NCBI GenBank assembly: GCA_949451655.1 | Contig: CASTST010000004.1 | Coordinates: 1-49,960, forward strand | Direction of reading: 5' to 3' | Source: an uncultured Eubacteriales bacterium | GTDB taxonomy: Bacteria; Bacillota; Clostridia; Oscillospirales; CAG-272 | DNA: 49,960 nucleotides | Shown here: piece by piece, positions 3,078 through 42,835 of the stretch | How the letters are laid out: every line of letters starts with the position of its first letter | Numbering within the stretch: the first letter of the stretch is position 1 | Notes under the pieces: model-generated | What the model was told of the DNA's origin: nothing | The model's input: the letters and a program-made list of their open reading frames with translations, nothing else | The model's database searches: none | Position numbers and translations under genes: made by a program

Positions 3078-4805
3078 ATGGGACAGATCTTTTCATCAGC
3101 GGATACCACGTGGGTCCTGATCGGAGCCGCACTGGTATTCTTTATGCAGGCAGGCTTTGCAATGGTTGAAACCGGCTTTACCAGAGCAAAAAACGCCGGC
3201 AACATTATTATGAAAAACTTAATGGACTTTGCAATCGGCACACCGATTTTCTGGGTAATCGGATTCGGTCTGATGTTTGCAGGAACAGGACCTTTCATCG
3301 GCGGACTGGATTTTCTGATTAAAGGAGATTATTCCTTTATGGGACTGAGCGTGCCCACGCCGGTATTCATCATTTTCCAGACAGTGTTCTGCGCTACCGC
3401 CGCAACAATCGTTTCCGGCGCAATGGCTGAACGCACCAAATTTATTTCTTACTGCATTTACAGCGGTGTTATCAGCGCCGTTATTTATCCGATTTCCGGC
3501 CACTGGATCTGGGGCGGCGGCTGGCTGGCACAGCTCGGCTTCCACGATTTCGCCGGATCCACCGCAGTCCATATGGTAGGCGGCGTTGCCGCTTTGGTTG
3601 GCGCAAAAATTCTGGGACCGCGTATCGGCAAATATGGCAAAGACGGCAAGCCTCGGGCGATTCTGGGTCACAGTCTGACGCTGGGCGCGCTGGGCGTATT
3701 CATTCTGTGGTTCTGCTGGTTCGGATTCAACGGATGTTCTACCCTGAGCATGACAGGAGACGACGCGCTGACTGCTGCCGGAAACATCTTTGTAACAACC
3801 AACCTTGCAGCCGCTACTTCAACGGTAGCTACTATGGTGATCACATGGATCCGCTATAAAAAGCCTGACGTATCCATGACGCTGAACGGTTCTCTTGCAG
3901 GACTTGTTGCTATAACCGCCGGCTGTGATACCGTTACGCCGGTGGGTGCATTCTTCATTGGCCTGGTTGCCGCTTTCGTAGTAGTATTCGGTATTGAATT
4001 TGTAGATAAAATCCTGAAAATCGATGATCCTGTGGGCGCGATAGGCGTACATGGCTTCTGTGGCGCAACAGGTACACTGCTGACCGGACTGTTTGCATAT
4101 TACCTCACAGATGATGCCGGCAATCCTCTCGGACTCTTTTACGGCGGCGGATTCAAATTTCTCGGAACGCAGGCGCTGGGTGTTATCTCCGTAATCGTCT
4201 GGGTAGCGGTAACCATGACCATCGTATTCCAGATTATCAAGCACACCATCGGACTGCGCGCCAGCGAGGAAGAAGAAATCCGCGGCTTGGATATCACGGA
4301 ACACGGTATTGCAAGTGCATACGCGGACTTTGCATCGGTACAGCCCCAAATTCTGACCGGCGCTGTTTCCACTTCTCAAGCTGCACAGGATGTATTGGAA
4401 AAGGCTGTTCCCGTAGAACATATTTCTGCATCAGATCCATCCAAGGCAAAGCTCACAAAAATCGCAATTGTATTGAATCAGGAGCATTTTGAACCGCTGA
4501 AAGCTGCCATGAACAGCATCGGCATCACCGGTATGACTGTAACGCAGGTACTGGGATACGGCACGCAAAAGGGACGCGACACATTTTACCGCGGTGTTAA
4601 GCTGGAAGAAGCAAAGCTGCTGCCAAAGGTAAAAGTAGAAATCGTTGTCAGCAAAATCCCGGTAGACACTGTAATCGACACTGCAAGACGTGCCTTGTAT
4701 ACCGGTAACGTAGGCGATGGCAAAATCTTTGTTTATGATGTGGAAAATGCAGTCCGTGTCCGCACCGGAGAACAGGGATATGACGCTCTCCAAGGCGAAG
4801 ATTGA
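3078..4805 (+). CDS. amtB: Ammonium transporter fused to a C-terminal P-II (GlnK/GlnB) domain
   Basis: Amt motifs FMQAGF, ATIVSGAMAER, DFAGSTAVH, WFGFNG, DDPVGAIGVH; P-II motifs GMTVTQVLGYGTQKG, LLPKVKVEIVV, TGNVGDGKIFV, RVRTGE. Confidence 0.95.
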   Translation: MGQIFSSADTTWVLIGAALVFFMQAGFAMVETGFTRAKNAGNIIMKNLMDFAIGTPIFWVIGFGLMFAGTGPFIGGLDFLIKGDYSFMGLSVPTPVFIIFQTVFCATAATIVSGAMAERTKFISYCIYSGVISAVIYPISGHWIWGGGWLAQLGFHDFAGSTAVHMVGGVAALVGAKILGPRIGKYGKDGKPRAILGHSLTLGALGVFILWFCWFGFNGCSTLSMTGDDALTAAGNIFVTTNLAAATSTVATMVITWIRYKKPDVSMTLNGSLAGLVAITAGCDTVTPVGAFFIGLVAAFVVVFGIEFVDKILKIDDPVGAIGVHGFCGATGTLLTGLFAYYLTDDAGNPLGLFYGGGFKFLGTQALGVISVIVWVAVTMTIVFQIIKHTIGLRASEEEEIRGLDITEHGIASAYADFASVQPQILTGAVSTSQAAQDVLEKAVPVEHISASDPSKAKLTKIAIVLNQEHFEPLKAAMNSIGITGMTVTQVLGYGTQKGRDTFYRGVKLEEAKLLPKVKVEIVVSKIPVDTVIDTARRALYTGNVGDGKIFVYDVENAVRVRTGEQGYDALQGED

Positions 4806-8536: not shown

Positions 8537-10369
8537 TCACAGCTTATAACTGCGGGTTATATTACTGCGTTCCGCAGCCAAGTCAAGCGCGTCAGCGGGC
8601 AGCCATGTAGTATATGGAGTACCGCTGGCTCCGGCAGCCTGCATATCACACAAAGTCAGCGACTGCCCATTATTATCAAAATGGAACAGCCTGCCGCACA
8701 AATAAGCAGGTTCTGCATTCTTTAGCAACAGCCTCTCCGGAGAAATCTGCGGTGTGACGGTATCATCCGTTTGATCCGGCGCATAAAATCCGTCCCATGC
8801 AAGCAGCAGCGGTCCTCTGTATACAGAGCATTTCCCTTCGTATGTTTTCTCCCCGGGGGCAAACCGCAGGGACATGTCAAAGTGGATTGTCACAGTATCG
8901 CCGTCCGCCCATTCCCTTTCAATAGGGAAATATCCGGGACGCACTGTTCCCTGTACCGGAACATCGTTGACCTGTACGGAAGTTTCTTCAGACCAGAAGG
9001 GAATGCGGACAAAAATCTTACGCAGCCTGCCCTCCAATCCGGATATCTCCAGGCGAACGCGCCCATCATAGGGATACTCTGTAGTCTGCCGTATGTGCAT
9101 ATTCGTTCCGTCCACTTCGAAATTGCCTTCACTGTCACCGTAGTAGTTGATATAAAGAGATGTGCCATCTGTCATATATGCCCAGCGGGCAAGCTCGCCA
9201 AACATACGGGGGGCGTTTACGGAACAGCAGTTCAAATCGGGACTGCCTGCACGGCACTGAAATCCGATTTCCCAATAATTTGCTTTTTTGTCCCCTTCCA
9301 TGGGGGTGTTATAGGTAGACCATCTTCCTGTAGGAGAAAAGCTACCCAGTCCTGCGTTATAAGTAGAAAGCTCCAGCGCATCTGCTGCTGTTACATCTCC
9401 AGTAAGCTGCAGCATGTCGGAAGTCAGCGCCATGTAAGCAACCGTACAGCAGGTTTCAATCGCTCCCGGTTCAAAAGGGTTGCCAATTGCCTGCTCACCC
9501 GTGGAGAACCCGCCGGTGTTGTGCACATCTGTTTGCGTGATGCTGCGCCAGATTTGTGTAAAGGCTTTGCGGTAATCGTCCTCGCCGGTGCAGTAGTACA
9601 ACTGAGCAATCAGCTCTATGGCGTGGAGACTTTCCCAACGGGGCTTTGGTGTTTTGTAATATTCCTGATTGGCGAGCGCAAGACGGTAATAATCTCCGCA
9701 TCCGGGCGCTGCAAAATCCTGGAGCACCTCAAGCGCAAAATCCAGATATTTCTGCTCCTTCGTTTTCCGATACAATATAGCAAACACATGCCCGGGAGCA
9801 TAATTCATTTCTGTTTCGCCCATATCATAAAGCCGACGGTTGCCCGTCTCCGGATTATAGAAGGTTTTGCAGAACAAATCGGCAATTTTTATCACGCAAT
9901 CCCATGCTGTGCTGTCTCCGGTTTCTTCATACCACAGCAAAAGACCGGACATGATGTGATAATGCGCCCAGCCGTCCCATGTGTTATACGGATCCTGATC
10001 CCCGATCTTTTCCCGCGCAGAACGTCCGCTCAACTGACAGTTCGTGGGCCAGCATCCCATATATCCGTTTTCCTTTTGCAGAGAAATCAATTCTGCGATA
10101 AAAGATTTCAAATATGTATACAGCTTTTGATTTTTTGTCAGCCGGTACAGCAAAACAGAGCAGGTAACGTACTTTCCTGCAAATTCTCCCGACCAGGGAA
10201 GCAGTCTGCGGTTTGGCAACTTATCCGGATATTTCAGCATATCGAGAATCGCCGGATTGGACTCACGAATACCAACAAGCCAATTGTCGATAATGTTGTC
10301 AATCAGTGTTCCAGGCGCGTCGTGCATTTGCAGATGTATTTTGGATACAGGATACAGTTTTTCTATCAT
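8537..10369 (-). CDS. Glycoside hydrolase family 127/146-like (beta-L-arabinofuranosidase-like)
   Basis: WSGEFAGKY, TGGFSTGE, ETCC and NCCSVN motifs; C-terminal TEYPYDG, RIPFWS, YRGPLLLA. Confidence 0.85.
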   Translation of the reverse strand: MIEKLYPVSKIHLQMHDAPGTLIDNIIDNWLVGIRESNPAILDMLKYPDKLPNRRLLPWSGEFAGKYVTCSVLLYRLTKNQKLYTYLKSFIAELISLQKENGYMGCWPTNCQLSGRSAREKIGDQDPYNTWDGWAHYHIMSGLLLWYEETGDSTAWDCVIKIADLFCKTFYNPETGNRRLYDMGETEMNYAPGHVFAILYRKTKEQKYLDFALEVLQDFAAPGCGDYYRLALANQEYYKTPKPRWESLHAIELIAQLYYCTGEDDYRKAFTQIWRSITQTDVHNTGGFSTGEQAIGNPFEPGAIETCCTVAYMALTSDMLQLTGDVTAADALELSTYNAGLGSFSPTGRWSTYNTPMEGDKKANYWEIGFQCRAGSPDLNCCSVNAPRMFGELARWAYMTDGTSLYINYYGDSEGNFEVDGTNMHIRQTTEYPYDGRVRLEISGLEGRLRKIFVRIPFWSEETSVQVNDVPVQGTVRPGYFPIEREWADGDTVTIHFDMSLRFAPGEKTYEGKCSVYRGPLLLAWDGFYAPDQTDDTVTPQISPERLLLKNAEPAYLCGRLFHFDNNGQSLTLCDMQAAGASGTPYTTWLPADALDLAAERSNITRSYKL

Positions 10370-10393: not shown

Positions 10394-11191
10394 TTATTTA
10401 AGTGCAATTTTGGCAAGATGCGTTTCATTCAAACCCAGCAGATTCGCCACAAAATCCGCATGATCATAGGAACTGTGCGCATCGCTGTCATGGGCATCGC
10501 TGCCGAACAGGAATTTGCATCCGCATTCCTTGGCAATCCGGAACATACGAAGCTGCGGACAAGATTCAATTTCCGCATCCGTCTTTTTATGCATGGATTC
10601 CACATTGATTTCTATTGCAATATCCTTTTCGGCAGTCTGATCAAACAGTCTTTTAAAGCAATCATCGGAAATCATGTTCATCAGGATTGTATAATCGTAT
10701 GGGCAGCCCACTGCTTCAAAGGGATGCGCAATCGCTGTGATATATTTGCTCACACTGCTGCCAATAATATCCTTGTAAGCCTGGATCATAAAATCCACAT
10801 GCTTTTGATAAGGTTCGTAGCAGTCCCGGGGCATGACTATATGGGTATGAGAGTTTGGCACAAGAATATAATCAAACTGTTCGGCTGTTTCTTCTGCCAT
10901 TGCGATATCATGCCGTGCGGGAACATATTCTGTTTCGCAGCCGAAATAAACCTTTATATCCGGTTCGGCAATCGCTTGCAGTTCCGGTTTCAGTTCCAGC
11001 AAATGGGGCAAATTCTGGGGCACATAAAACGGTGTGGCTCCTGGAATTTTTTCATCCCAGAAATGATTGGAAAATCCCAGCTTTGTAAGTCCGTGCTCTT
11101 TTGCAATACGCAGGTAGTTTTCCACTGTTGCCGTTTCGTTTGCACATAAGGACAAATGGGTGTGAATGTGAAAATCATGTTTTATCTTCAT
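10394..11191 (-). CDS. PHP-domain phosphoesterase (histidinol-phosphatase-like)
   Basis: DFHIHT, SNH, GCETE, AHP and GSDAH metal-binding motifs. Confidence 0.88.
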   Translation of the reverse strand: MKIKHDFHIHTHLSLCANETATVENYLRIAKEHGLTKLGFSNHFWDEKIPGATPFYVPQNLPHLLELKPELQAIAEPDIKVYFGCETEYVPARHDIAMAEETAEQFDYILVPNSHTHIVMPRDCYEPYQKHVDFMIQAYKDIIGSSVSKYITAIAHPFEAVGCPYDYTILMNMISDDCFKRLFDQTAEKDIAIEINVESMHKKTDAEIESCPQLRMFRIAKECGCKFLFGSDAHDSDAHSSYDHADFVANLLGLNETHLAKIALK

Positions 11192-11263
11192 ATATTTATC
11201 ATACCTTTCTCATATGCGAGAAAATAGTTTGCAGAGTCTTGCGCCGCTTCCCTTCACCGGAGC

Positions 11264-11553
11264 AGCCAACAATATCCGCTTTGTGGATATTATACCATAA
11301 AAGCAAACGCGAAGCGTTTGTCAGCGGCAAAGCCGCCGAATACGCAGTATTCGCTTTTAGCCGTCAATAAAAACAGCGCAATGCCGCATGGCATTGGTAT
11401 AAGCTGTTTTTATTATACCATGATGCAAAAACGCTTGCTTGCAAGGGCGTTTTTGCGAAGCCGTCAATGACGCAGTCGTGGGAAGCACGCAGCGGCGCCG
11501 CAAAGGCTTACGCAGTAAGTTATTCTGCGTATATTATACCATTCTTCATCAAT
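11264..11553. repeat. Periodic array of conserved blocks TATTATACCAT / AGCCGTCAAT separated by variable hairpins
   Basis: TATTATACCAT at 11288, 11411, 11532; AGCCGTCAAT at 11359, 11459; variants at 11264 and 11547. Confidence 0.85.
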
Positions 11554-11659
11554 AGATAGCAAGTTATTTTCACATATACGGAAATAATTTTCGCACATTT
11601 CAGCAAATATTTTTCCTCTTGACCCAATATCACAAATATGATACTATATCAATATAATC

Positions 11660-12751
11660 ATGATTACTTATGAAAGGATGACTGCCATGCGTCCAAAATC
11701 TGTTTTAGCAGCACTCCTGTGCATATCCATGCTCGTTGCCATACTGCTAACCAGTCACATATTTGCAGCAGAATGCGTGCATAGCTATGAATCAAATATT
11801 ATTGCAGCCACTTGTATAGATAAAGAACAAATTCAATACACTTGCCGCCTTTGCAAAGATTCCTATTCCATTCCGGCAGATGCGCCTGCTCTCCCCGATT
11901 CCTGCTATGTGCTTATAAAAAGCACAAAAGACAACGAGCAGCTTACCGTTACTGTAACACTGGAAAACAACCCGGGTATACATTCCATGCGAATGAATTT
12001 TCATTATAATCCGCAGGCGCTGCGCCCGGTGTCCCGCATTAACGGAAATGTATGGACAGACCGGGAATGCTGGTCAAGTGCCTCGCCAACAGAAAATCCC
12101 TTTTCCTATGCAGCTCAGTATAGTAATTTAACCGAAAACAATACCAAAAACGGTTTGATTTGCACGCTGATATTTGATATTTTAGATGATACTGCTGACT
12201 ATAACTTTACAGTCACCCTGGATAAAAAACCATTTATAGATTACAATAGCAATGTAATAGATGCAACAATAATAAACATAGTAGGAAAAAGCGAATTTGG
12301 CAGTCATACATATGAACAGCGCACAGTTCCCCCGACTTGTACGGAAACAGGTTCAGTAAACGATGTCTGCATCCACTGCGGAGATACCGTTTTGATAGAA
12401 ACGCTTCCTGCCGCAGGACATCAATGGACATTTACTGAAGAAATCATTTGTCCTACTTTTGAAAGCACCGGAATCGCATTGTATACCTGCCCGGACTGTG
12501 GAAACACCAAAGAAGAAACCCTCCCGATTCTGGAACATTGGAGAAAAGGAGATTTGAATAACGATCACGAACTCACTTCGTTAGATGTGGTATACATGCG
12601 CAGGTTGTTACTGCTATACATTGACGGCTCCCCGCAAATGTATGATGCGGCAGATCTGGATGAAGACGGCACGATATCTCCATTAGATTTTGTTACACTC
12701 CAACGAATCGTTTCGGGAATAATACCGTATCCGCCCGAATGGGAATGGTAA
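11660..12751 (+). CDS. Secreted protein with cohesin-like domain, His/CxxC repeats and C-terminal dockerin
   Basis: Signal peptide; LTVTVTLENNPGI...FHYNPQAL cohesin-like segment; KGDLNNDHELTSLD and AADLDEDGTISPLD duplicated Ca-binding loops; start may be the later ATG near 11687. Confidence 0.8.
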   Translation: MITYERMTAMRPKSVLAALLCISMLVAILLTSHIFAAECVHSYESNIIAATCIDKEQIQYTCRLCKDSYSIPADAPALPDSCYVLIKSTKDNEQLTVTVTLENNPGIHSMRMNFHYNPQALRPVSRINGNVWTDRECWSSASPTENPFSYAAQYSNLTENNTKNGLICTLIFDILDDTADYNFTVTLDKKPFIDYNSNVIDATIINIVGKSEFGSHTYEQRTVPPTCTETGSVNDVCIHCGDTVLIETLPAAGHQWTFTEEIICPTFESTGIALYTCPDCGNTKEETLPILEHWRKGDLNNDHELTSLDVVYMRRLLLLYIDGSPQMYDAADLDEDGTISPLDFVTLQRIVSGIIPYPPEWEW

Positions 12752-13340: not shown

Positions 13341-15707
13341 ATGTATCAAGTACAAAAGAGAGACGGAAAAGTTACAGAATTTGATTTGTCCAAAATCAGC
13401 AGCGCCATCACTCTGGCTTTTGAAGCACAGGAAAAGGAATATGTTCCTTCTATTATAGACTTTCTGGCGCTTAAAGTAACTGCAAACTTTGAACCGAAAA
13501 TCAAAGACGGCATCATCGCTGTAGAAGATATTCAGGACAGCGTAGAATCCGTTTTAGTGCAGGCAGGCTACGACGATGTAGCAAAAGCATATATCTTGTA
13601 CCGCCGCCAGCGCGAAAAAGTGCGTAACATTGAATCCACTCTGCTGGACTATAAAGAAATTGTCAATAATTACGTAAAGCTCAACGACTGGAGAGTAAAA
13701 GAGAACTCTACCGTCACCTATTCCGTAGGCGGTTTGATCCTGTCCAACTCCGGCGCTATTACTGCAAACTATTGGCTTTCTGAAATTTATGATGATGAAA
13801 TCGCCTCTGCGCACAGAAATGCAGATATCCATATTCATGACTTGTCCATGCTCACCGGATACTGTGCAGGCTGGTCCCTCCGTCAGTTAATCAAGGAAGG
13901 GCTGGGCGGCGTTCCCGGAAAAATCACCAGTTCTCCTGCCAGCCACCTGGCAACACTGTGCAACCAAATGGTCAACTTCCTTGGTATCATGCAGAATGAA
14001 TGGGCTGGCGCACAGGCGTTTTCCTCTTTTGATACATATCTGGCTCCGTTTGTCAAAGTGGACAATCTGTCCTATGAGCAGGTAAAGAAATGTATCGAAA
14101 GCTTTATCTATGGCGTAAACACTCCTTCCAGATGGGGTACACAGGCACCCTTCTCCAATATCACATTGGACTGGACCGTCCCCGCAGACCTTGCAGAGGA
14201 AAACTGCATCATTGGCGGCAAGGAAGTTGATTTCAAATACAAAGACTGTAAAAAAGAAATGGATATGGTCAACCGTGCCTTTATCGAAATCATGATTGAA
14301 GGCGATGCAAACGGTCGCGGATTCCAGTATCCGATTCCTACATATTCCATCACCCGGGATTTTGACTGGTCCGAAACAGAAAACAACAAGCTGCTGTTTG
14401 AAATGACTGCAAAATACGGCACCCCCTATTTCTCCAACTATATCAACTCCGATATGGAACCCAGCGACGTGCGCTCTATGTGTTGCCGTCTGCGTCTGGA
14501 TCTGCGCGAACTGCGCAAAAAATCCGGCGGCTTCTTCGGAAGCGGTGAGTCCACCGGTTCCGTGGGTGTTGTAACAATCAACATGCCCCGTATCGCATAT
14601 CTTGCCGACAGCCCGGAAGATTTCTACCGCCGTTTGGATCATATCATGGATCTTTCTGCACGCAGCCTGAAAATCAAACGTACTGTAGTCACCAAGCTGA
14701 TGGAGCAGGGACTCTATCCCTACACCAAGCGGTACCTGGGCACCTTCAACAACCACTTCTCCACCATCGGTCTGGTAGGTATGAATGAAGCAGGTCTCAA
14801 TGCAAAATGGCTGAAAAAGGATATGACCCACGCTGAAACCCTGCAGTTCACTAAGGAAGTGCTGGACCACATGCGGGAACGTCTTTCCGACTATCAGGAA
14901 ATGTACGGCGATCTGTACAACCTGGAAGCTACCCCGGCTGAATCCACCAGCTTCCGTCTTGCAAAGCATGATAAGAAACGGTATCCGGAAATTATTACAG
15001 CACACGAAGGTGCAACCCCTTACTATACCAACTCCTCTCACCTGCCTGTAGGATACACCGATGATGTATTCTCTGCTCTGGAATTGCAGGATGATCTGCA
15101 AACCCGGTACACCTCCGGTACAGTATTCCACGCATTCCTTGGAGAAAAGCTCCCCGACTGGAAGGCTGCAGCAACGCTGGTACGTAAAATTGCAGAAAAC
15201 TTCACCCTTCCTTATTATACCCTGTCCCCCACATACTCCGTTTGTAAAGATCACGGTTATATCGCCGGAGAAGCGTTCTCCTGCCCCACCTGCGGCGGTA
15301 AAACAGAGGTTTATTCCCGTATCACCGGTTACTACCGTCCCGTTCTCAACTGGAATGACGGAAAATCCCAGGAATACAAGGATCGCGTAGTTTATAATAT
15401 TGCTACCTCTGTTGTAAAACGCAGTAAGGCGCTTAGCGAAGCAGTGCAGGATGAGGCTCCCGCTGCTGGTGCAAACGACGCTGTTCTGCTGTTTGCAACC
15501 AAAACCTGCCCGAAATGCAAAGTAGCACAATCCCTTCTGGATAAAGCAGGCGTAGAGTACACCAAGCTCTATGTAGAAGAAAACGAAGAACTGGCAAAAA
15601 ATCTGGGACTGCGGCAGGCGCCCACCCTTGTGGTCGGTGACCAGCAGTATACCGAGGTAGCCGGTGTGAAAGCATTTTTAGATAAAACGGCAAAAGTTAC
15701 CGTTTGA
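13341..15707 (+). CDS. nrdD: Anaerobic (class III) ribonucleoside-triphosphate reductase with N-terminal ATP cone and C-terminal glutaredoxin/NrdH-like domain
   Basis: VQKRDG ATP cone, HIHDL, SMCCRL finger loop, EATPAES, CxxH..CPxC, YSRITGY glycyl motif, C-terminal TCPKC...QAPTL. Confidence 0.93.
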   Translation: MYQVQKRDGKVTEFDLSKISSAITLAFEAQEKEYVPSIIDFLALKVTANFEPKIKDGIIAVEDIQDSVESVLVQAGYDDVAKAYILYRRQREKVRNIESTLLDYKEIVNNYVKLNDWRVKENSTVTYSVGGLILSNSGAITANYWLSEIYDDEIASAHRNADIHIHDLSMLTGYCAGWSLRQLIKEGLGGVPGKITSSPASHLATLCNQMVNFLGIMQNEWAGAQAFSSFDTYLAPFVKVDNLSYEQVKKCIESFIYGVNTPSRWGTQAPFSNITLDWTVPADLAEENCIIGGKEVDFKYKDCKKEMDMVNRAFIEIMIEGDANGRGFQYPIPTYSITRDFDWSETENNKLLFEMTAKYGTPYFSNYINSDMEPSDVRSMCCRLRLDLRELRKKSGGFFGSGESTGSVGVVTINMPRIAYLADSPEDFYRRLDHIMDLSARSLKIKRTVVTKLMEQGLYPYTKRYLGTFNNHFSTIGLVGMNEAGLNAKWLKKDMTHAETLQFTKEVLDHMRERLSDYQEMYGDLYNLEATPAESTSFRLAKHDKKRYPEIITAHEGATPYYTNSSHLPVGYTDDVFSALELQDDLQTRYTSGTVFHAFLGEKLPDWKAAATLVRKIAENFTLPYYTLSPTYSVCKDHGYIAGEAFSCPTCGGKTEVYSRITGYYRPVLNWNDGKSQEYKDRVVYNIATSVVKRSKALSEAVQDEAPAAGANDAVLLFATKTCPKCKVAQSLLDKAGVEYTKLYVEENEELAKNLGLRQAPTLVVGDQQYTEVAGVKAFLDKTAKVTV

Positions 15708-42096: not shown

Positions 42097-42835
42097 AAGC
42101 CCCCAGCAAAGGGGGATATTACAAGTCACGTCCAACAAAAAGCCTCCCTTGTGCAAAGGGAGGTGGCGCGGCGTAAGCCGTGTCGGAGGGATTGTTTAGC
42201 AATCCTCTGAGTTGTAAAATATCCAAAATGATAGCAGAACAATCCCCCACCCGCTCTGCGGGAGCCCCCTTTGCACAAGGGGGCCTTTTTACTGGATGAA
42301 GCTATTGCATGACAGCTCTCTTTGCACTAAGGACCTTTTTGCTGGGTAAAACTATTGCGTGACAGCTCTCTTTGCACTAAGGACCTTTTTGCTGGGTAAA
42401 ACTATTGCGTGACAGCTCTCTTTGCTGGGGGAAACTATCGTGTGACAGTTTCCTTTGCTAAGGATGCTTTTTGGTTGGATATAACCTATAGCAAGTTCCT
42501 TTACACAAAGGATCTTTTGGAGTAAATATTGTGCGAAAGCCCCGCTCACCCTAAGCCTCCCCCCAGTAAGAGGAAGTGGCGCGGCGCTTCCAACAAGTCA
42601 TAGAGGCTCCCTTGTGTAAAGGGAGCTGGCACAGCTATGCTGTGACTGAGGGATTGTTTAGCAATACTCTGAGTTGTAGAATATTCAAAATGACAGCAGA
42701 ACAATCCCCCACCCGCTCCGCGGGAGCCCCCTTTGCACAAGGGAGCCTTTTTACTCCTTTTTACTGGGTAGAGCTATTGTGTGACAGCCTCCTTTGCTGG
42801 AGATGCCTTTTTGTTGGATGTGACCTTTAGCGTGA
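42097..42835. repeat. R9: two near-identical doublets (42142-42290 and 42604-42750) with an internal 50-bp tandem repeat
   Basis: The two central/right-arm segments differ at about 5 positions; GACAGCTCTCTTTGC at 42311, 42361, 42411. Confidence 0.9.

Follow-up and report, generated by a model that had tools for sequence, protein, structure and literature searches.

Candidate promoter-docking structured repeats upstream of a PHP/GH127 operon in an uncultured Eubacteriales bacterium

The window analysed here is a stretch of 49,960 nucleotides from the genome of an uncultured Eubacteriales bacterium (assembly GCA_949451655.1, contig CASTST010000004.1). At positions 11,264 to 11,553 it contains an array of two short conserved blocks, A and B, that alternate with hairpins and face an operon encoding PHP-domain and GH127 proteins. 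On balance, this array is probably not a single periodic structure; we read it as the ordinary σA promoter of the PHP/GH127 operon (TTGCTA-18-TGGTATAAT) with two unlike elements, Y and X, behind it. X and Y are repeated, inserted elements. They have clean filled and empty states at the edge of the TATAAT hexamer and each carries a replacement box. The sequences of their hairpins are free to vary and pairing is kept. We lean towards the view that X and Y are members of a family of non-autonomous, modular, promoter-docking structured repeats. Throughout, the array is described on the minus strand, which is the sense strand of the PHP operon; the plus strand of the window is the complement. The genome holding the window (89% complete) is referred to as G000, and two sister species as G015 and G021.

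The array and the resident promoter

Block A reads TGGTATAAT on the minus strand and is a consensus extended −10 box; the plus strand reading is TATTATACCAT. Exact copies of TATTATACCAT occur at 11288, 11411 and 11532. The positions and the periods of 123 and 121 bp given in a preliminary description of this DNA all hold. Allowing at most one mismatch, there are 8 matches to block A in the window compared to 0.73 expected, and none of 100 shuffled sequences reached 8. Block B reads ATTGACGGCT on the minus strand and AGCCGTCAAT on the plus strand. Its exact copies are at 11359 and 11459, and variant forms are found at 11264 and 11547. As a bare 10-mer, block B occurs at chance level (3 matches compared to 3.42 expected, with 64 of 100 shuffles reaching 3). 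Hence, its significance derives from its fixed position and from relatives, not from the count. The four intervals are each self-complementary, as first described, and include perfect inverted repeats of 12 and 10 nt. When folded as single-stranded DNA (ssDNA), the 290 nt of the array gave −64.9 kcal/mol for the plus strand (z −5.4) and −62.5 kcal/mol for the minus strand (z −4.8). For neither strand did any of 200 shuffles fold as well. An independent metagenome study yielded a 248-nt contig that is identical to 11293-11540. Thus, the array is not an assembly artefact.

A promoter scan of the minus strand returned, as the top promoter-like site, TTGCTA-18 nt-TATAAT, with TG in front and 10 of 12 matches. 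The −10 box of this resident promoter is the upstream-most block A, named A0. The spacer holds a B-like ATTGATG (11547..11553) that had been described as part of an 'empty' unit of the array. It is only 8 nt from TATAAT and is therefore unable to act as a −35 element. The orthologues in G015 and G021 retain this segment as TGATAAAGAA. In the orthologous G021 promoter, a box equivalent to A0 leads directly into the 5′ untranslated region (UTR). The beginning of the UTR, a short hairpin and a degenerate block B (11264..11288), may be a remnant half-unit; in G021 the matching short hairpin is followed by an intact ATTGACGGCT.

Filled and empty sites

The elements are built, in order, of a hairpin or cloverleaf, block B, a further hairpin or cloverleaf and block A, and they measure ~121-134 bp. 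Element Y has the arrangement H4-B1-H3-A1 and element X the arrangement H2-B2-H1-A2 (Table 1). The two are unlike; neither the sequence nor the shape of H4 is related to that of H3, and the same applies to H2 and H1. A 134-bp segment that runs from A1 to A2, comprising X and both boxes, recurs as a 99.3% identical copy on another contig (G000:C6:39405-39538). A third copy of X is split between two contigs, with 55 bp at the end of C127 (100% identity) and 80 bp at the start of C128 (98.8%). Each X copy in G000 precedes a different, unrelated gene. In all, the genome has three X copies, one Y and a few fragments.

At the C6 locus, both sister species have TTGCAT-17-TGGTATAAT followed directly by the UTR. 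This is an empty site. At the same locus of G000, TATAAT is immediately followed by 123 additional bp, which consist of H2-B-H1 plus a second box. At the PHP locus, G021 is without an element, G015 has one X-type unit (X′) and no Y, and G000 has Y and X. Box A2 of G000 precedes the same 5′ UTR start as the empty G021 site.

We tested for a target-site duplication. Box A is present on both sides of the insert, but the bases ahead of the right copy are those of the element, namely GCTTTTA for X and, following H3, TTCA or TTA for Y. The left box retains locus-specific upstream bases in all copies. Hence, the right box looks like part of the element more than a duplicated target. The comparison of filled and empty sites at the two loci places the insert directly 3′ of TATAAT with no apparent duplication, as is the rule for palindromic elements derived from IS200/IS605 (PATEs). 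Terminal inverted repeats are absent; the first 20 nt agree with the reverse complement of the last 20 at 5 of 20 positions in Y and 8 of 20 in X.

Since an element ends in a new TATAAT, at the same place relative to the transcription start, the gene keeps a −10 box. Each insertion also brings a new box that is a new landing site, and arrays of unlike units are therefore expected. The window has Y and X in this configuration, and genome G020 has Y with a third type of unit (L012). Tandem Y units, with ~125 bp spacing, are found in genomes G192 and G268.

A lower-identity contig from one rat metagenome joins 11468 to 11411, so that B leads straight back to A. The joint indicates a relative that has B-H3-A repeats with a 58-bp period and no hairpin in the first slot. 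One run presumed to be RNA yielded only short contigs, which break at the edges of the repeat.

Distribution and genomic context

BLAST with 11250-11560 as query matched 10 of 41 genomes, counting G000 itself. Matches from other families of the order are ~78% identical across the whole Y unit. The exact pattern B-N30-60-A occurs at 15 sites in 8 of 301 genomes of the order and a reversed control pattern gave none; the motif pair is thus not confined to the window, a check that the preliminary description had proposed. A scan of GTDB, with one genome per species, identified at least 120 loci, mostly in gut or rumen Clostridia. The GTDB-derived counts given here and below (arrays, units, loops and pairs) rest on the matches listed. 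A loop filter flagged 88 of the 130 matches listed as the B-H3-A block, and several more are near variants. Among these matches, almost all carriers are metagenome-assembled genomes from gut or rumen labelled Clostridia, Oscillospiraceae, Eubacteriales, Christensenellaceae and so on. Matches in other phyla are at the level that chance predicts for such a pattern. Box A was found 64-77 nt upstream of B-H3-A in 92 of 117 blocks, with a mode of 68. This spacing defines a unit of ~133 nt, box to box.

A −35-like hexamer, scored as at least 4 of 6 matches at a distance of 16-18 nt, precedes the left-most box of an array in 43 of 71 cases compared to 14% of shuffles, a few of the 71 boxes being in fact internal. 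Requiring at least 5 of 6 matches, the figures are 32% and 1.7%. A co-oriented open reading frame with a ribosome-binding site lies within 300 nt downstream of 83 of 102 arrays, and the median distance is 64 nt. For 11 or more of the remaining 19, less than 300 nt of sequence was available, and some loci were counted more than once. Judged by their first residues, the downstream genes appear to include lepA, pyruvate kinase, nrdR, greA, prfB, pyrophosphatase, MinD/ParA-like ATPases, ligA and response regulators. These are varied housekeeping genes with no common function visible.

Metagenome contigs were also scanned, using the 26-nt core of H3 only. This yielded at least 115 loci, with 92 being unique and having enough flanking sequence. 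Sorted by context, the 92 listed comprise 64 Y-like loci, 7 of a second type, 4 of a third type and 17 others.

Folding, covariation and strand asymmetry

In the module after each block A, the final AAT of the −10 box and the ATT at the start of B are part of the closing stem. For instance, the initial ATT of B1 pairs with the AAT of the box ahead, and perfect 12-nt arms are found at 11366-11377 and 11403-11414. The folded strand leaves roughly TGGTAT and GACGGC as unpaired linkers. H2 is terminator-like on both strands and includes TTATACCA, which is complementary to box A.

The stems covary. We aligned 76 of the 83 unique GTDB units together with the window unit (77 in total); the seven left out comprised one 153-nt unit, which has an additional hairpin, and second units of arrays already represented. 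Double changes were observed for 15 of 21 predicted pairs. One pair in arm 3 is CG in 33 sequences, GC in 20, UA in 6 and AU in 4. The arms and closing stem of H4 covary across the 77 units, and the H3 stem has a CG/UA switch in 21 of them. At loci L086 and L132 the H3 loop is kept atop a wholly different stem. RNAalifold, applied to a MAFFT alignment, detected only arm 3 and H3 because the H4 arms were misaligned by length.

Loops and mismatches were counted using custom scripts. In the promoter sense, the loops are TTC 47 times versus GAA 3 times, TTT 22 versus AAA 3, TGC 17 versus GCA 2, GTT 13 versus AAC 1, and CTT 8 versus AAG 1. Most are closed by C...G. The plus strand equivalents (C-GAA-G, C-GCA-G and so on) are C-GNA-G triloops. 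Similarly, the H3 apical loop, G-CAAG-C on the sense strand, is G-CTTG-C on the plus strand, a CTTG tetraloop. Of 46 single internal stem mismatches, 28 are T.C or C.T, which is G.A on the plus strand. Only 3 are G.T and 7 are A.C, so there is no wobble excess. For 120 unique units, the mean folding energy was −47.0 kcal/mol for the plus strand compared to −44.4 kcal/mol for the other (Wilcoxon p = 2e-12). Triloops of the d(GNA) type, with C-G closure, are unusually stable DNA hairpins according to the accessible text of two reports (PMC3201870, PMC13037366). That triloops dominate and wobble pairs are not in excess argues for DNA over RNA. A cruciform in duplex DNA would be indifferent to the strand on which GAA lies. 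Hence, we infer that the plus strand, which is the template strand of the downstream gene, is under selection as folded ssDNA.

Evidence against a mobile repeat and alternative readings

Several results weigh against a family of inserted, mobile repeats. First, a mobilising enzyme was not found. A linked HUH/RAYT nuclease had been suggested as something to look for; PF01797 (Y1) has no matches in G000 (the control matched 6 of 14 genomes) and is found in just 1 of 5 element-bearing genomes that are 93-98% complete. PF04986 (Y2) matched none of 5 genomes, but the control likewise gave no match and the result carries no weight. Second, no transfer vehicle was found: in blastn, X and Y matched none of 50,697 phage records and none of 72,556 plasmids, and a pattern scan of IMG/VR gave no hits. 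Third, no gain or loss of units was seen at the strain level in the 4 runs compared. Fourth, the GC skew of the sense strand is positive at 39 of 65 loci, showing no clear bias of element orientation with respect to replication in what is a weak test with short flanks; this lends no support to a mechanism based on the lagging-strand template. Fifth, the orthologous X copies of G000 and G015 differ by two compensatory double changes at only 8% divergence, which could reflect in-place selection on structure. Sixth, the GTDB search pattern had exact A and B, and invariance of the blocks in that set is therefore by construction. In the H3-core scan, among the 92 matches listed, exact TGGTATAAT follows H3 in 37, TATAAT in 49, and exact B precedes H3 in 28. 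Finally, B-H3-A is nearly invariant across families and H4 varies, a pattern that is also compatible with a function in the host. The contrast with H4, whose sequence is free, suggests that some conserved partner reads B-H3-A.

This last point keeps alive the possible, though rather unlikely, reading that the units are portable promoter cassettes useful to the host. B-H3-A (~−63 to −7) would be a complete strong promoter with upstream elements, the hairpins ahead of it would insulate it from read-through, and both spread and conservation would result from selection for downstream expression, not selfish mobility. The constancy of B-H3-A over many taxa, with H4 keeping pairing only, is in line with this, as are the compensatory changes between orthologous copies and the terminator-like hairpins just 5′ of the boxes. 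In addition, a consensus extended −10 box closes every unit, with a start codon at a median distance of 64 nt, and reuse of promoters between unrelated genes is documented in general (PMC3575422, in the text available). Conversely, element-borne boxes have no −35 element at 16-18 nt; TTGCAA in the H3 loop is 21 nt away and B is 44 nt away. A promoter acting as a duplex predicts no maintenance of pairing under the wholesale stem swap seen at L086 and L132, nor does it predict the strong strand asymmetry of the loops. The downstream genes share no theme.

It is distinctly unlikely that the units are small RNA (sRNA) genes or structured 5′ leaders encoded by the promoter-sense strand, a version of which was put forward when the array was first described. 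In this scenario, transcription from each box A would yield an RNA of ~110 nt with its 5′ end at the base of the first stem, AUUGACGGCU available as an unpaired seed, and its 3′ end at H3 or H2. An arrangement of sibling sRNA genes in tandem is known. Consistent with such RNAs, the closing stem of the first module starts 4-7 nt after TATAAT, where a transcript would begin, and terminator-like scores were obtained on the promoter-sense strand for H2 and for the final arm of H1. However, the strand asymmetry and the triloop dominance disfavour RNA. The sense strand would have UUC, UUU, UGC and GUU loops and U.C as the common mismatch, with the stable alternatives on the other strand. Wobble pairs are not enriched among mismatches (G.T 3, A.C 7) or in a hand tally of aligned pairs (GU 18, AC 12). 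Furthermore, H3 pairs through and beyond the T-run with covariation, which is needless for a terminator, and an sRNA gene needs neither the right-hand box A nor exact insertion at TATAAT.

Rfam is also without a match. For 10800-12000, a search at a permissive E-value gave two weak chance matches, the best being Hrs13 at 15.9 bits compared to a gathering threshold of 52. For 12 related loci only unrelated T-box, 5S and tRNA matches were obtained, and no family for the elements. ARAGORN detected no tRNA or tmRNA. A literature search found no description of the family; the array was originally said to match no named family, and this is borne out.

We consider it very unlikely that the units are REP/BIME-type or IS200/IS605-derived palindromic elements (PATEs) moved by a Y1 HUH transposase. 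Insertion 3′ of a fixed short target with no true target duplication, an element end that resembles the target and an ssDNA-like structural signature all accord with this origin. Against it stand the PF01797 results (none in G000, 1 of 5 carriers), the end hairpins of a unit, which are unlike each other, the lack of a clear replication-strand bias or a GTAG-type tag, and the low copy number. Of the three readings in the preliminary description, a REP-like ssDNA element is the closest to the evidence. The part of it that stands is a repeated, inserted element with ssDNA mini-hairpin loops on the plus strand; the defining features of the REP/RAYT system, namely the GTAG tag, the Y1 gene and the copy number, are missing.

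The remaining reading, a structure-gated split promoter in which hairpin extrusion brings TTGACG (B) and TATAAT (A) to a working distance, starts from the likeness of B to a −35 hexamer, the identity of A as a −10 box and the palindrome always found between them, and the blocks do face the PHP and GH127 genes, both on the minus strand; it is scarcely credible because the spacer after extrusion would be 7 bp (X) or 12 bp (Y), not ~17, and so differs between module types, and moreover the upstream-most box already has a −35 element at 18 bp, B is also downstream of box A at element-free sites, and cruciform extrusion cannot explain the strand asymmetry of the loops.

Features of the array and its surroundings

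The array occupies a 468-bp gap between two diverging genes. Coordinates are collected in Table 1.

Table 1. Positions of the array components and neighbouring genes in the window.
Feature	Coordinates	Strand	Remarks
GH127 gene	8537-10369	minus	Follows the PHP-domain gene
PHP-domain gene	10394..11191	minus	First gene 3′ of the array; ATG at 11191-11189
Remaining UTR, 72 nt	11263-11192	minus	
5′ UTR start	11264..11288	minus	Short hairpin and degenerate B
Degenerate B ATTGTTGGCT	11273-11264	minus	
Short hairpin	11288-11274	minus	ATCCAC-AAA-GCGGAT
Element X, 123 bp	11289..11411	minus	H2-B2-H1-A2
A2	11289..11297	minus	X-borne −10 box; now the promoter-proximal box of the operon
H1, 61 nt	11298..11358	minus	Closing stem AAAAGC/GCTTTT round three mini-hairpins; plus strand loops GAA, AAA, GCA
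B2 ATTGACGGCT	11359..11368	minus	
H2, 43 nt	11369..11411	minus	Hairpin AAAAACAGC/GCTGTTTTT and inner hairpin
Element Y, 121 bp	11412..11532	minus	H4-B1-H3-A1
A1	11412..11420	minus	Y-borne −10 box; docking site for X
H3, 38 nt	11421..11458	minus	Long hairpin GCAAAAACGC/GCGTTTTTGC, conserved apical CTTGCAAGCAAG
B1 ATTGACGGCT	11459..11468	minus	
H4, 64 nt	11469..11532	minus	Closing stem ACGCAG/CTGCGT round three small hairpins, cloverleaf-like; from ssDNA folds
A0 TGGTATAAT	11533..11541	minus	Resident extended −10 box; docking site
Spacer, 18 nt	11556-11539	minus	Resident promoter
B-like ATTGATG	11547..11553	minus	Within the resident spacer; formerly the 'empty' unit
−35 hexamer TTGCTA	11557..11562	minus	Resident promoter; promoter scan
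Cohesin/dockerin gene	11660-12751	plus	Other side of the gap

Between the diverging promoters there are 17-nt direct repeats (11561-11577, AAGTTATTTTCACATAT, and 11582-11598, AAATAATTTTCGCACAT), 21 bp apart. They have long-range inverted-repeat partners near 11166-11232, and the layout is operator-like. Elsewhere in the window, the anaerobic ribonucleotide reductase NrdD (13341-15707) has a C-terminal glutaredoxin domain besides its ATP-cone.

Related repeat types

The H3 core also ends two other types of element in metagenome contigs. In each, the cloverleaf arms are capped GCAAGC. The second type is represented by L202, L233, L234, L261, L278, L239 and L267, and the third by L173, L200, L223 and L231. 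The flanking boxes of these types are, for one, TGACGGGTA ... CCCGGCTGTCGCA ... CTCGAATAAA and, for the other, GGTTTTAAACC ... TTGATAAAG. The L239 copy is directly behind a 5S rRNA gene and terminator; the L278 copy is directly ahead of a T-box leader.

A ~110-bp tandem unit bounded by TGGTATAAT was found at L010 (G030:C16, ~13700-13990). An internal ATTATACCA pairs with the −10 box and the second block differs, being ATTATATCTGATT. This unit probably represents a sister family of the X and Y elements. The motif CCTCCCTTGTGTAAAGGGAGG ... GGAGGGATTG is present after truncated Y-like or related units at G000:C110 ~1650-1800, G000:C132 ~4700-4750 and L017, and may be another hairpin-repeat family. 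A separate ~200-bp intergenic repeat, present dozens of times per genome in the genus, emerged from side matches of the flank search. Its sites include 42100-42288 and 42553-42750 of the window (minus strand), G000:C6:39776-39978, C3:33928-34129, and others on C21, C11, C8, C19 and further contigs.

Comparison with known systems

The closest described kinds are Correia elements, REP/BIME sequences, IS200/IS605 miniatures and the catalogue of putative mobile promoters; the first three miss defining features. In Correia elements, the ends are terminal inverted repeats and a TA target is duplicated. In the accessible text on the Correia (CREE/NEMIS) elements of Neisseria, they resemble the units here in being 100-160 bp, non-coding, dispersed and gene-adjacent, with promoter boxes at the ends, hairpin folding and presence that varies between strains (PMC2649163). 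Unlike Correia elements, X and Y have no terminal inverted repeats, target a whole −10 box, consist of modular, interchangeable hairpins and have few copies per genome.

REPs are units of 20-40 nt with a GTAG-type tag. They are present in hundreds of copies, mostly downstream of genes, with a RAYT in the genome. As far as the available portions of the sources go, REP, BIME and REPIN sequences share with X and Y the form of intergenic palindromes of partly free sequence, joined by conserved linkers into mosaics, and a role as ssDNA hairpins is proposed for them (PMC3479197, PMC3184786, PMC8049555). The units here differ in measuring 121-134 bp, in having several unlike hairpins and no GTAG-type 5′ tag, and in their low copy number; 83 of 102 arrays directly precede a co-oriented gene and there is no RAYT in G000.

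Members of the IS200/IS605 family, such as IS608, insert 3′ of a short specific sequence with no target duplication, have subterminal hairpins and use an ssDNA intermediate. They depend on a Y1 TnpA, have hairpins of the same kind at either end and are strand-biased with respect to replication. X and Y share with them, and with PATEs, insertion 3′ of a specific short sequence and hairpins in place of inverted repeats. They differ in that Y1 TnpA was not found in G000, the end hairpins are unlike and there is no clear strand bias.

Putative mobile promoters (Nijveen, Matus-Garcia and van Passel 2012) are likewise near-identical promoter regions ahead of unrelated genes, within or between genomes (PMC3575422). 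The catalogue was assembled by sequence similarity and, in the accessible text of that report, no structured element, −10 docking or hairpin modules are described. We also considered an integron attC site or cassette and rejected it; such palindromes end in an inverse core RYYYAAC and a core GTTRRRY, whereas the boundary blocks here are TGGTATAAT and ATTGACGGCT and are not mutually complementary (IntI was not searched for).

Proposed mechanism

For promoter-docking repeats, we propose that an element is copied in immediately 3′ of a resident TATAAT, brings its own extended −10 box and can stack without silencing the gene. The plus strand is probably active as folded ssDNA, and the unpaired A and B blocks would be the sites that are recognised or joined. 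Propagation might depend on a recombinase that acts on folded ssDNA and is encoded elsewhere. Alternatively, it might involve double template switching between −10 boxes, aided by stalling at hairpins. The effect on the host gene would probably be small, and limited to a displaced −35 element, an added upstream promoter and terminator-like hairpins. As the proximal extended −10 box is rebuilt, we infer that insertion is nearly neutral for the host gene.

A more specific and improbable version is a transposase-less ssDNA element that homes to melted promoters, where the open complex exposes the junction right after TATAAT. A folded plus strand copy, with GNA mini-hairpins and unpaired A/B linkers, would be joined or copied in by host enzymes. 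Each event would rebuild the promoter and make the next landing site, with transcription initiation as the targeting signal.

Significance

If confirmed, the elements would be a distinct type among the few bacterial non-coding mobile repeats, defined by docking at the −10 hexamer and by self-repair of the site. Their structure would consist of interchangeable DNA mini-hairpins between two fixed blocks. There are practical consequences for genome analysis. To automated tools that annotate intergenic regions, the units resemble sRNA genes, riboswitches or tandem promoters. Contigs break at the units, as for the third X copy, and this matters for assembly quality. The conserved 57-nt B-H3-A block points to a putative conserved binding partner. 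If confirmed, the family would also bear on promoter rewiring in the uncultured gut and rumen Clostridia that are dominant in many microbiomes.

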